Shown here: positions 8,574 to 42,498 of the stretch, piece by piece | Layout of the letters: every line of letters begins with the position of its first letter | How positions within the stretch are numbered: the first letter of the stretch is position 1 | Source: Octopus vulgaris | Taxonomy: Eukaryota | Reading direction: 5' to 3' | NCBI GenBank assembly: GCA_951406725.2 | Contig: OX597822.1 | Location: 12,028,001-12,092,000, forward strand | DNA length: 64,000 bases | Program-made: the position numbers and the translations under genes | Notes under the pieces: generated by a model | Seen by the model: the letters and a program-made list of their open reading frames with translations, nothing else | What the model was told of the DNA's origin: nothing | Databases searched by the model: none

Positions 8574-8650
<77 letters not shown>

Positions 8651-8653
<3 letters not shown>

Positions 8654-8812
8654 GACGGGCTTCTTTCAGTTTCCGCATACTAAATCTACTCACAAGGCTT
8701 TAATCGACCCTAGGCTATAGTAGAAGTCACTGTTCTAAGGTGCCAGACAGAGGGATTGATCCCAGAACCATGTGACTGGGAAGCAAGCTTTTTACCACAT
8801 AGCCACGCCTGA
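8651..8812 (-). mobile_element. SINE family A, 5' half
   Basis: acgacgggcttctttcagtttcc..ctatagtagaag..ttaccacatagccacgcct. Confidence 0.85.
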
Positions 8813-22705: not shown

Positions 22706-23076
22706 ACTCTTTTACTCTTTTACTCTTTTACTTGTTTCAGTCATTTGACTGCGGCCATGCTGGAGCACCACCTTTAGTACTTATTCTATCGGTCTCTTTT
22801 TGCCGAACCGCTAAGTGACGGGGACCTAAACACACCAGCATCGGTGGTCAAACAATGCTAGGGGGACAAACACAGACACACACACACACACATATATATA
22901 TATACATATATACGACAGGCTTCTTTCAGTTTCCGTCTACCAAATCCACTCACAAGGCATTGGTCGGCCCGGGGCTATAGCAGAAGACACTTGCCCAAGA
23001 TGCCACGCAGTGGGACTGAACCCGCAACCGTGTGGTTGGTTAGCAAGCTACTTACCACACAGCCACTCCTGCGCCT
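22706..23076 (-). mobile_element. SINE family A, near full-length, low divergence
   Basis: Head aggcgcaggagtggctgtgtggtaagtagcttgc..ggttcagtccc; tail ends in (taaaagag)n. Confidence 0.93.
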
Positions 23077-33643: not shown

Positions 33644-34048
33644 GTGTGGTAAGTTGCTTGCTTACCAACCACATGCTTCAGGGTTCATTCCCACTGCGTA
33701 GCATCTTGGGCAAGTGACGTCTACTATAGCCTCGAGCCGACCAAATCCTTGTGAGTAGATTTGGTAGACGGAAACTGAATGAAGCCCGTCGTATATATGT
33801 ATATATATATATATATGTGTGTGTGTATGTGTATGTTTGTGTGTATGTCTTTGTCCCTCTAACATCGCTTGACAACCGATGGTAGTGTGTTTACGTCCCC
33901 CATAACTTAGCGGTTCGGCAAAAGAGACCGATAGTATAAGTACTAGGCGTCCAAAGAATAACTCCTAGGGTCGATTTGATCGACTAAATGTGGTGCTCCA
34001 GCATAGCCGCAGTCAAATGACTGAAACAAGTAAAATACTAAAAGAGTA
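33644..34048 (+). mobile_element. SINE family A, near full-length
   Basis: All head, core, microsatellite and tail motifs present. Confidence 0.92.
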
Positions 34049-38849: not shown

Positions 38850-39195
<346 letters not shown>

Positions 39196-40068
39196 TTATT
39201 TCATACAAATTGCCACAGGGGCATAACATAGAGTAACAATTATATTAATGGGATGAAATGAATATAAAACTTTTAATGAGGGAAATGAACGGCGCCCGCC
39301 GACCGCCGTCTCCCGAATACATTGATCTTTTTTAGAATAAACAGAATGAGGTTTCAAACTTCTTATCATTTACAATGCGGAGGCTTTCCTACCTCTTACT
39401 CATAGTCCAAGGCAGGAATTTCGGCAGACCAGGTACAGAAACAATTTTTGGTTGGCGAGATACATCCCCCAAAACAAACCAAAAAAAATTTAACTCACCA
39501 AAAAGTGAGTACTACTAGATTCACCACAGGCAGAAAAAATGTCTAGAGTTCAGCAGGGATTTATTAAAAATAACACAACAAATCCACCCCCGAACTCAAG
39601 AATCAAAAATCCCTACCCGTAGTGTGTCTCTTTTTTGCCCTCTTATTCATGCAGTTCAAAGCGACTTTACAACTGGAAATTGGTAGCAACAACAAAACCA
39701 GGCACTCCGAAGCAGGAACTACAGCAAACCAGGTACTCCAATGCGAGAATTATAGCAGAGGAACAATACTTTGGTTGCGAGATACGCCCACCAAAACACA
39801 GCAAATTTTTGTTGGCGAGATACTCCCACCCCAAAAAAACTTTACTCACTAAAAGTGAGTACAACTACACTCCAAAGACAGACAAAAATGTTTAGAGTTC
39901 GGCAGGTATTTATTAAAAATAACACAACAATAAATCCCCACCGAACTAAAAAGAAAACAAAAAGTCTTACCTGTAGCCAGTCTCTTTTATTTCTCTTATT
40001 CACGCAACTTAAAGCGACGTGACGTTCACAGTAGCAGTAGCCAACAACTGACGGTGCTTGTGTCGAGA
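39196..40068 (-). mobile_element. Non-coding non-autonomous retroelement with a duplicated ~300-bp 5' unit
   Basis: Bounded by 14-bp direct repeats; 3' ~180 bp homologous to 40083-40280; tandem units ~39425-39695 and ~39725-40050. Confidence 0.72.
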
Positions 40069-40082
40069 GTGAGCAAGCTACT

Positions 40083-42066
40083 TTTATTGATATAATTATG
40101 CCATAAAGGCATTACACAGACGTAACTCCGGGCTGGACATTACATTGATGAGATGAAAATGATAAACGAAATTATGATATTAATGAGAGGAGCCAAACAC
40201 TCCCGCCGATCTTCTGCTTCTCTAAACCATTGTTCTTCAAAAAACTGAACGAGGTATTGAACCTCTTACTTCCGTTTTACAATTACTGGACTTAACAGTC
40301 CTTTACAAATTGAGGCGCTGAGCCTCTTATAAACAATAATATGCGATAAACATTTTAGGCACTAAAGCCTCTTTATCCTTCTTCTCCGACCAGGCTGAAT
40401 GCTCCAGCTCCAATACTCGGGGCCCAGAAGGCGAACCTAAACTGGTCCTTCGAGAAGGAGTCCAACAACCTGAACATATCGACTTCCGATATGACCTCCG
40501 TAATCACCTGCGGAGGCCAATCCGAGTCTTCAGTCAGGGCATGAGCTCCTCCCTCCGGCCCTCTAGCTTTCTTAAGAAGCTCTCTTTTGCCCCTCGCTTA
40601 TGAAGGAAGATAACAAAATCATCTCTTTGACACTCTGGGAAGGTCCAAAGTTTCCTCTGTTGGTGGCACAATCCCCACCGACAAAGTTTAAGGGCATGCC
40701 GACAGTGTACCATCAACCGCTCTTTTTCTTTTTCTTTTTCTCCCCTTTGCTGCAGAAGGGTGTGGTATCTCTGCTTTATCCGGAGGATCTTCCTCCCATC
40801 CCGCAGCTTTAGGGACGTTCGGTGGTCAACCATTGGTGCCTACCTTGTTTCTTTTCTTTGTTTTTTTCGATGAGGTCTCCACCTCCTCGACTGCCTCCAT
40901 CTTTCCCTATAATGGGGGAGCGTGGAAGCTACTTTTATTAGCTGCTCTAGGACTTTACCTTGGTCCTGGGGACAGTTCTTTTTAATGTGGCCTGGTTTTA
41001 AGTACAGGTGACACTCAAGAATCACCGGATACCTAGAACCGGCCAATCTCAAGAAATCTGGGAAAACCAGATTATTGGCTGATTGGGTCCACAGGGTTTA
41101 AGCCGCTTTTAACCCCACCCAATCAGTCACCGGCAGAATTTTAAGATTTAGGAGTTTGGCTCCGCTGCCACCCAGACTCAAGAGAATAGTGTCTTCTATC
41201 CACTCGGGTTCTATCCCGGGTGGCAACCCATAGAACCAAGCTCTTGTTATTTTCTTCCCACAATATGTGGGAAGAAAGAGACTCTTTTGCCCTTCTAAGG
41301 GCTGGCTCGCAAAATTGCGAGTCTCCTCTGGGGTGTCAAATAGCAACCACACCGTTGAGTACTTGACGCCCCTGGCAATAAACTTAATAGATATTCTGTC
41401 AACTCTTTCTCAATTTCAATTTGAGATAACACTGTGATGGTGCCGAGCGACTTGGAATACGTCCTCAACACCACCGTTCTCTCGTTGAAATCTTTTACCC
41501 GCTGCTTGGGGGTACAATCTTCCACTTCAACGCAGTGTTTGCCTTTTTTGCCATGCTTGCGGAAATGAGAGTCCATAAAATAGTTCACACAAAATGTCTA
41601 AATAAAGTCAAAAGTAAACAAAATGCGCAGAAAGACACAGCAGATAAAGCAGCAACAAAATTCCGGACACTCGGTAATCCTGATCCACAGGTATTCCAAA
41701 ACATGGCACACCACACAGGTACTCAAGGTCACAGTAGCAGCAGGAACACACAAAATAAACCTCCACAAATTGGCCGAATTTTCAAAGTTTTCACAAATCT
41801 TGGTGGTGAGACACGCTCACAAAACAACAATTCTCACAGCTAAGTGAGTCACTTCGCGCGACTGCAGGCAGACAAATGTTTGGGACCCAGTGAGGATTTC
41901 CTATTCGAAAAAAACAAAACAATGTCAAAAAACAAAACCCCATTGAATCCCCCCCAAAACAGATGCCTACCTTACAGTCGCGCTTTCAATATTTCTTCAA
42001 TTCAGGACGGCTACAAAAGCACGTCATGACAGTATTCAAATTTGGAAGCAACTAACCAACTCATGC
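40083..42066 (-). mobile_element. ORF1-only (HAL1-like) non-LTR retroelement, ~2.0 kb
   Basis: Bounded by 14-bp direct repeats; ~490-bp 5' UTR starting near AGTT; one disrupted ORF; ~210-bp 3' UTR ending in AATAAA; no space for EN/RT. Confidence 0.75.
40293..41576 (-). pseudogene. gag-like ORF1 with degenerate zinc knuckle (frameshifted)
   Basis: MDSHFRKHGKK..FNERTVVLRTYSK / WLLFDTPEETRNFASQPL..LFLPTYCGKKITRAWFYGLPPGIEPEWI / RYPVILE-CHLYLKPGHIKKNCP (CX2[C]X4HX4C-like), followed by a basic low-complexity region. Confidence 0.75.
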
Positions 42067-42498
42067 GTAAGGAAGCTACTTACCACGCAGCCATCCCTAC
42101 GCTATACGCATGTGTGTGTATGTGCGTGTGTGCGTTTCTGTGTGCGTAAATATATGCACATAGATATTCATATTCATACACATACAGACGATATTCACAT
42201 ACATACATACATATATACATATAGAGATAGACAACGAATCATGCTGTAAAGAGATACTCCAATATCAATTCTAACCGTTAGGACGTACAATATTATAGTT
42301 ATGATTACATATTAAGTGAATGGAAAGAAGAAACTTAAAAAGGAGGAAATTAGATACAATGAAGTACAATGAAGCATAAATATCGATCAGTCTGGATCCC
42401 TACTTTTCTATTACCTTTTTCTACTACCTTGGTAGGTTTATGCTCATACCAGTTCCTCTCATGAGATCAAATGCAAATACTGGTCACGGCGATTGATA

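Follow-up and report, generated by a model that had tools for sequence, protein, structure and literature searches.

In one SINE of Octopus vulgaris, two related retroelements, E1 and E2, lie one behind the other at a single short site, and the question that this locus raises is whether they met there by accident or belong to families that seek the site out. The locus lies in a stretch of 64,000 nucleotides (contig OX597822.1, positions 12,028,001 to 12,092,000), here called the window, from a genome of 2.8 Gb. A preliminary description made from the letters of the window had suggested non-autonomous elements that target an abundant SINE or its ancestral tRNA. We propose, with considerable confidence, that E1 and E2 are copies of two old ORF1-only families that were likely trans users of the endonuclease and reverse transcriptase (RT) of a 5.7-kb Tx1-like LINE, which inserts at the same site in the SINE head. 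Both window copies are dead.

Anatomy of the locus

All parts of the locus are on the minus strand (Table 1); a split SINE and two elements in its own orientation had been described. Read along that strand, the order is SINE head, first duplication copy, E2, second copy, E1, third copy and SINE body. Within the SINE head, the insertion point has the box A-like motif on one side and the box B-like motif on the other. Three copies of a 14-mer had been noticed and are exactly where they were placed; with a common 5' A, which could belong either to the element end or to the target, the duplication is 15 bp long. The 3' ends of E1 and E2, described earlier as homologous and clearly diverged, align at 62% identity over 202 columns (E 5e-9). 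Each duplication copy has at most one private change, and E1 and E2 are equally old (~85-88% to their nearest copies). By analogy with young arrays, rather than from the stack itself, E1 would have come first and E2 second. Further copies of the same SINE, uninterrupted or truncated, lie at 2607-2795, 8576-8789, 22892-23053 and 33651-33834 of the window, and microsatellites dominate a repeat search of its whole length.

Table 1. Features of the stacked locus in window positions, listed in the 5' to 3' order of the minus strand.
Feature	Positions	Strand	Basis
SINE 5' head up to the insertion point; box A-like motif 42093-42082	42082..42103	minus	sequence; same head before 25 of 29 other E2-family 5' ends
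Target-site duplication copy 1, head-proximal, one private mismatch	42067..42081	minus	sequence
E2, full-length (1983 bp), decayed ORF1-only element	40084..42066	minus	79-80% end to end to 2.0-kb copies L131 and L133, bounded by the same duplication
E2 broken ORF1: two predicted RRMs, zinc knuckle, low-complexity linker, C-terminal domain; frameshifts and stops	40373..41554	minus	tblastn with intact sister protein P0001 and fold of the sister protein
E2 3' end: 4-bp hairpin and A-rich terminus, common to the partner LINE	40084..40115	minus	sequence comparison
Target-site duplication copy 2, middle, one private mismatch	40069..40083	minus	sequence
E1, 872-bp internally deleted copy of a 2.5-kb ORF1-only family	39197..40068	minus	comparison with family copies
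E1 5'UTR: two tandem repeat units (40018-39802 and 39665-39442), 77% alike	39442..40018	minus	also in other family copies
E1 deletion junction, ~6 nt common to both sides; ~1.4 kb including ORF1 gone	39403..39408	minus	comparison with family copies
E1 3' end: same hairpin and terminus as E2	39197..39228	minus	sequence comparison
Target-site duplication copy 3, native side, majority sequence	39182..39196	minus	sequence
Rest of SINE head (box B-like motif 39165-39155) and SINE body, then TA microsatellite	39060..39181	minus	sequence; other window copies at 73-85%

E1 and E2 belong to ORF1-only families

E2 had been described as a 2.0-kb element with only a gag-like ORF1. It is indeed ORF1-only, as full-length E2-family copies elsewhere are 2.0 kb long between duplications and have no ORF2, which is not the pattern expected if this copy had just lost its ORF2. 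Its ORF1 is not intact: the sister protein P0001 recovers it as four tblastn pieces in three frames, one at 65% over residues 58-215 (E 6e-64) and more in other frames, with frameshifts and stops. E1 had been taken for a non-coding element of 0.87 kb, and of this the size stands and the type does not. It aligns to bases 1-845 and 2264-2487 of a 2487-bp full-length ORF1-bearing copy (L118), and it is non-coding because the ~1.4 kb deleted from it held nearly all of ORF1. Among 42 matches, the window copy alone spans this deletion junction. Since E2 aligns end to end with ORF2-less copies and E1 consists of the two ends of an ORF1-bearing copy, both are ORF1-only elements and E1 is further deleted. 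The two families are 69% alike in the ORF1 region.

Two related families are younger. A protein search gave 11,093 first-look candidates (a rough number), from which a family of ~2.25 kb with an intact 414-aa ORF emerged (family Y; median pairwise identity 99.0% among 18 copies); a further family (Z) is 2.0 kb long with a 415-aa ORF. Lower-identity matches to related ORF1 proteins were ORF1-only at all 20 loci. These are full-length, multi-copy elements in which ORF1 is present and ORF2 absent, which is what defines an ORF1-present non-autonomous LINE.

Other rearrangements were seen among the copies collected. Four E2-family copies (L077, L078, L023 and L007) have an inverted internal or 5' segment resembling the twin-priming inversions of L1. 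At L087:1000-1476 an 18S rRNA fragment (Rfam RF01960, 146 bits) is joined directly to an E2-family 5' end in place of the SINE head, which looks like a template switch during reverse transcription, and at L010:2410-2982 a frame reading like an exon of a host nuclease gene adjoins an off-target E2-family copy. A 3.6-kb element between duplications (L245) has ORF1, no ORF2 match and an extra 1.5 kb. In two loci (L140 and L141), the ORF1 of an older ORF1-only copy is interrupted at the same position by a short element whose 3' end is of the same type and which is followed by a target-like 15-mer.

One site in an abundant SINE

Site use was determined from the best 40-150 candidates of each genome search. 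In 251 kb of DNA chosen without regard to the SINE, the density of empty target sites is ~1.0 per 10 kb, which gives a random 3' end a probability of ~2.6e-4 per insertion of falling on one; by rough estimate, the genome holds ~290,000 empty sites. Against this background, the SINE site is used by 12 of 14 intact 3' ends of the E1 family (15 loci, counted by hand) and by all 11 of its intact 5' junctions (13 loci), seven of them directly behind another element, and by 30 of 30 family Y 3' ends among the matches scored. The 29 other 3'-end matches scored for the E2 family comprise 15 at the site, 11 elsewhere and three without a 3' end. Targeting by non-autonomous families of one position in an abundant SINE, as had been suspected, thus extends to many copies of several ORF1-only families, and the flanks of the on-target copies all continue into the SINE body rather than being random. 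In the E2 family the targeting is looser than the preliminary description implied, with 11 of 26 intact 3' ends off the site. Most of these 11 open with the initial 4-6 bases of the site (two of them represent one duplicated locus), and script detection found a duplication at three, two of which are again one duplicated locus. Truncation at the 5' end affects all 11 off-target copies, one of which also has a 5' piece inverted, versus 7 of the 15 on-target copies.

As a control, other Tx1-like families (30 loci) had one of 21 scorable 3' ends at the site, by a weak match, and the top zf-RVT families do not target the SINE. Several copies of such non-targeting Tx1-like families (L199, L212, L214 and L226) have similar 3' flanks, and these may belong to another repeat that is preferred as a target.

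The target is the SINE itself. The proposal that the ancestral tRNA might be targeted, in the manner of Dewa or Dada, did not hold among 25 distinct tRNA genes sampled from six amino-acid types, none of which carries the 12-mer of the site. Octopus SINE families include OK, OR1 and OR2. A tRNA origin of the SINE head is plausible, and box-like motifs are visible in it; ARAGORN and Rfam gave no tRNA match to it, and its best alignments to tRNA-Lys and tRNA-Glu score 53-56, compared with a 95th percentile of 50 and a maximum of 58 for shuffled sequences.

A candidate autonomous partner

The preliminary description had advised a search for an autonomous partner that has both the 3' end and the target in common with these elements, and this search yielded one with the same target and a 3' end that is related. 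An ORF2 fragment that ends exactly at the SINE site, upstream of an ORF1-only element, led to a LINE family in which 29 of 30 3' ends (query locus included) meet the site. Eight copies of 5.4-5.7 kb have both ORF1 and ORF2 between duplications, and many others are 5'-truncated. The one intact ORF2 encodes 1133 aa with Exo_endo_phos, RVT_1 and zf-RVT domains over cut-off (PF03372, PF00078 and PF13966), and its best solved relative is human L1 ORF2p (E 8e-66), far above R2. The partner ORF1 has a zf-CCHC domain over cut-off; its Atlas look-alike, ZCCHC3 at 0.90, is a lead only. An APE endonuclease with RT and a C-terminal zinc-binding region, a CCHC-containing ORF1 and sequence-specific insertion are all features of the Tx1 clade, the last being common in it though not universal. 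In a tree of 45 RTs, those of octopus form one clade (100/99), within which the three targeting RTs form another (100/99); the nearest relatives with names come from fish, amphibians, turtle and coral, and among these proteins several have ZCCHC3-type ORF1 domains and one is named Transposon TX1. Because this tree lacks an outgroup as well as curated sequences of Tx1 and L1, the assignment of the partner to Tx1 is likely and falls short of proof.

A partial deletion is seen within one partner copy (L310), and near 73.05 Mb of G000:C2 (L249) another autonomous Tx1-like family, with an intact 1140-aa ORF2 and no SINE site, forms a tandem array with a period of ~5.4 kb.

The DNA of E1 and E2 resembles that of the partner only over the last ~20-30 nt, which comprise a 4-bp hairpin and an A-rich end; a long poly(A) is absent. 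In an alignment of this hairpin 94.6% of 112 cells are paired and six are compensatory, a level reached by none of 500 shuffles. There are only four pairs, and one of them holds all compensatory changes. By eye, a similar hairpin is present in non-targeting Tx1-like families, which means that the hairpin by itself does not single out the partner. As the DNA is otherwise dissimilar and the ORF1 proteins are 27-30% identical and not sisters, the link between partner and riders rests on the shared target and terminus, which together suggest mobilization in trans. It should be noted that the partner copies found are 88-98% alike and younger than E1 and E2; therefore, the enzyme source of E1 and E2 would be an ancestor or an older sister of this family.

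Proposed choice and rebuilding of the site

In 18 young single insertions the two duplication copies disagree five times at position 13, with the family base always in the upstream copy, and one variant at position 7 is present in both copies; the end of the upstream copy therefore likely derives from the element RNA. The families also differ in the variant of the site that they occupy. Family Y is at the AA variant in 41 of 55 cases versus 14 of 72 empty sites in a non-random sample (p 4e-10). For the E1/E2-type families it is found at 0 of 20 ends and another variant is used, and three ends of an older group use a third. SINE age may be part of this difference, which also hints at target tracking.

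The match of the distal part of the upstream duplication to the family rather than to the native site could also be read in another way, namely that the elements are steered by pairing between the DNA and target-like sequence in the transcript, acquired when transcription reads through out of the SINE head or onward into its body, and that any Tx1-like ORF2 supplies the enzyme. The similar hairpin of the non-targeting families and the 5'-truncation of all 11 off-target E2-family copies also speak for it. However, 5'-truncated partner and E2 copies are also found exactly at the site, and where the first half of the duplication varies, the variant is native and not templated. In addition, the accessible text of PMC4494074 attributes target choice in Tx1 elements mainly to the endonuclease. 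We therefore regard steering by RNA-DNA pairing as unlikely and retain target choice by the enzyme of the partner LINE.

Origin of the stacks

Stacking is most extensive in family Z, which forms head-to-tail arrays within single SINEs of up to seven Z units and nine elements in total; for 26 of 30 Z copies, found at 15 of 19 places, the 3' end directly adjoins another element. It could be argued that such stacks arose mainly by local tandem duplication, or from dimers mobilized together, rather than by separate insertions at one site. At most places Z lies upstream of a Y or partner copy, and in one Z array two neighbor pairs differ by just 2 bases, as local duplication would give. On the other hand, a Z unit often resembles units of another array more than it does its own neighbors, copies of the E1 family have at least four different upstream partners, and E1 and E2 themselves come from different families. 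Stacked Y copies are scattered among solo ones, with a solo copy as nearest neighbor in five of seven cases, and have no private change in common. Duplication or co-mobilization as the main source of the stacks is thus very improbable, and these comparisons favor separate insertions, mostly into the upstream duplication. In two Z arrays a derived variant lies upstream of the ancestral one, and a third is mixed, with no clean age order. In one array an extra-T site variant is present in all seven upstream duplications and absent from the last copy.

The ORF1 protein

The predicted structure of the family Y protein has two RRM-like domains in its N-terminal 205 residues (pLDDT 84.7), followed by a CCHC knuckle. 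The RRM-like fold superimposes on that of La with Z 9.4 and an rmsd of 2.9 over 82 residues, and the Foldseek matches are tandem-RRM proteins. A model of the whole 414-aa protein from a shallow alignment has a pLDDT of 40 and gives no usable structure of the C-terminal domain. In Pfam the ORF1-only proteins match the zinc knuckle alone, below threshold, and the match of an octopus ORF1 profile to vertebrate ZCCHC3-type ORF1s is weak (best E 0.004) and lies mostly in the knuckle. We describe ORF1 as a predicted RNA-binding protein of two RRMs and a zinc knuckle. The ORF1p of L1 consists of a coiled coil, one RRM and a CTD, and the predicted RRM-RRM-zinc knuckle arrangement in octopus is unlike it. 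The closest named relative is an uncharacterized Octopus sinensis protein (75%).

Comparison of coding sequences indicates that ORF1 is under purifying selection, with dN/dS of 0.13-0.25 in 10 of 11 pairs and 0.67 in one pair of decayed E2-family copies. The ORF1-only proteins are 23-34% identical to the ORF1s of ORF2-bearing octopus elements, and in a tree 13 of them form a single long-branched clade (100/100) that is not sister to the partner ORF1. The separate clade and the low dN/dS together point to an ORF1-only lineage that is old and self-maintained, rather than to recent deletion of the partner. It is scarcely credible that E1 and E2 are autonomous LINE copies each of which lost an internal part in an isolated event: E1 does carry a one-off deletion and a partner copy is internally deleted too, but the part lost from E1 is ORF1 and not ORF2, the idea is contradicted for E2, no ORF2 trace was found in the window, full-length copies at unlinked loci measure 2.0-2.5 kb between duplications and lack ORF2, the intact 414-415-aa ORF1 of the young families is followed by a stop and the 3' end, and ORF1 is under purifying selection between families.

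Proposed mechanism and its implications

We now put forward a mechanism for the spread of these ORF1-only families that draws on the partner LINE for its enzymes. The element RNA would be coated by its own ORF1 protein through the predicted RRMs and zinc knuckle, and the ORF2 protein of the partner would bind the shared 3' hairpin. The partner endonuclease would then nick the SINE in the interval that separates its two box-like motifs, and target-primed reverse transcription would insert the copy, resulting in the 15-bp duplication. We propose that the last bases of the upstream duplication are supplied by the element RNA, so that a usable site is rebuilt ahead of each insert; later copies would enter this upstream site, giving rise to head-to-tail stacks.

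A broader reading, which we offer tentatively and at somewhat less than even chance, is that a Tx1 lineage that remains active, together with ORF1-only satellites that have long formed a clade of their own, would be specialized parasites of the promoter region of the SINE. Insertion would split box A from box B, the site would be rebuilt from RNA to give interstitial arrays like those of HeT-A/TART, and successive families would shift between SINE variants. If true, this would amount to a chase of transposon against transposon, and to a natural nuclease for which cephalopods offer harmless landing sites by the hundreds of thousands. Since intact copies of ORF2 and ORF1 exist, both the gain of a rider from its own ORF1 and the way in which an APE endonuclease reads and shifts its target can be tested. 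For annotation, stacks of this kind will be mislabeled as split SINEs, satellites or host genes, as the Octopus sinensis record illustrates.

Comparison with known systems

Sequence-specific Tx1 families in the accessible text of PMC4494074 and PMC3706591 include Keno (U2 snRNA), Dewa (tRNA-Leu spacer) and Kibi/Koshi (microsatellites). The octopus elements resemble them in inserting at a fixed base of a multicopy target and differ in that this target is a mobile SINE and not a host gene array. A SINE thereby joins the list of targets of sequence-specific LINEs. The portion available of a further source, PMC13282606, lists L1-Tx1 families and is silent on their targets. In the literature searched we found no SINE target for Tx1 and no Tx1-type ORF1-only family, and neither of these in cephalopods, and Repbase, Dfam and subscription journals may hold them. 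Specifically, Tx1 elements that target transposons and ORF1-only LINEs are each known, and it is their combination on a SINE that was not found in these papers.

The closest parallels in targeting are the Tx1-Mar LINEs and SINEU of crocodilians and Tx1 of Xenopus, in which, according to the available sections of Kojima 2015 (PMC4494074), Tx1 elements target other transposons and have non-autonomous riders, and sequential tandem insertions sandwich one duplication. In octopus, likewise, a Tx1-type LINE targets another transposon, its riders share the target, and tandem insertions share the duplication. The targets differ, being DNA transposons (Mariner-N4_AMi, Tx1D, Harbinger) or LTR elements in those systems and one position of a SINE head in octopus, and so do the riders, which are snRNA-headed SINEs in the Tx1-Mar system and encode their own ORF1 in octopus.

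The ORF1-present non-autonomous LINEs named in the accessible text of Kojima 2018 (PMC5786205, PMC5753468) are HAL1 (L1 clade), HeT-A (Jockey clade) and Ag-Sponge (CR1 clade), with no member of the Tx1 clade in that text. Like these, the octopus elements have one ORF1 protein and no ORF2, are multi-copy, and appear to depend on a partner. A Tx1-type case thus joins the short list of ORF1-only retrotransposons. HeT-A also forms head-to-tail arrays with its partner, and the octopus arrays differ in being interstitial and inside a SINE. An assignment to HAL1 in the strict sense was rejected, as ORF1 is a tandem RRM with a CCHC knuckle and has its relatives among the ORF1s of octopus Tx1-like elements; HAL1, moreover, is not described as site-specific in the text available, whereas the octopus families are. 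By analogy, therefore, we suggest that the octopus ORF1-only elements work in the way of HAL1 and HeT-A on the one side and of Tx1-Mar and SINEU on the other, without being filed as HAL1.
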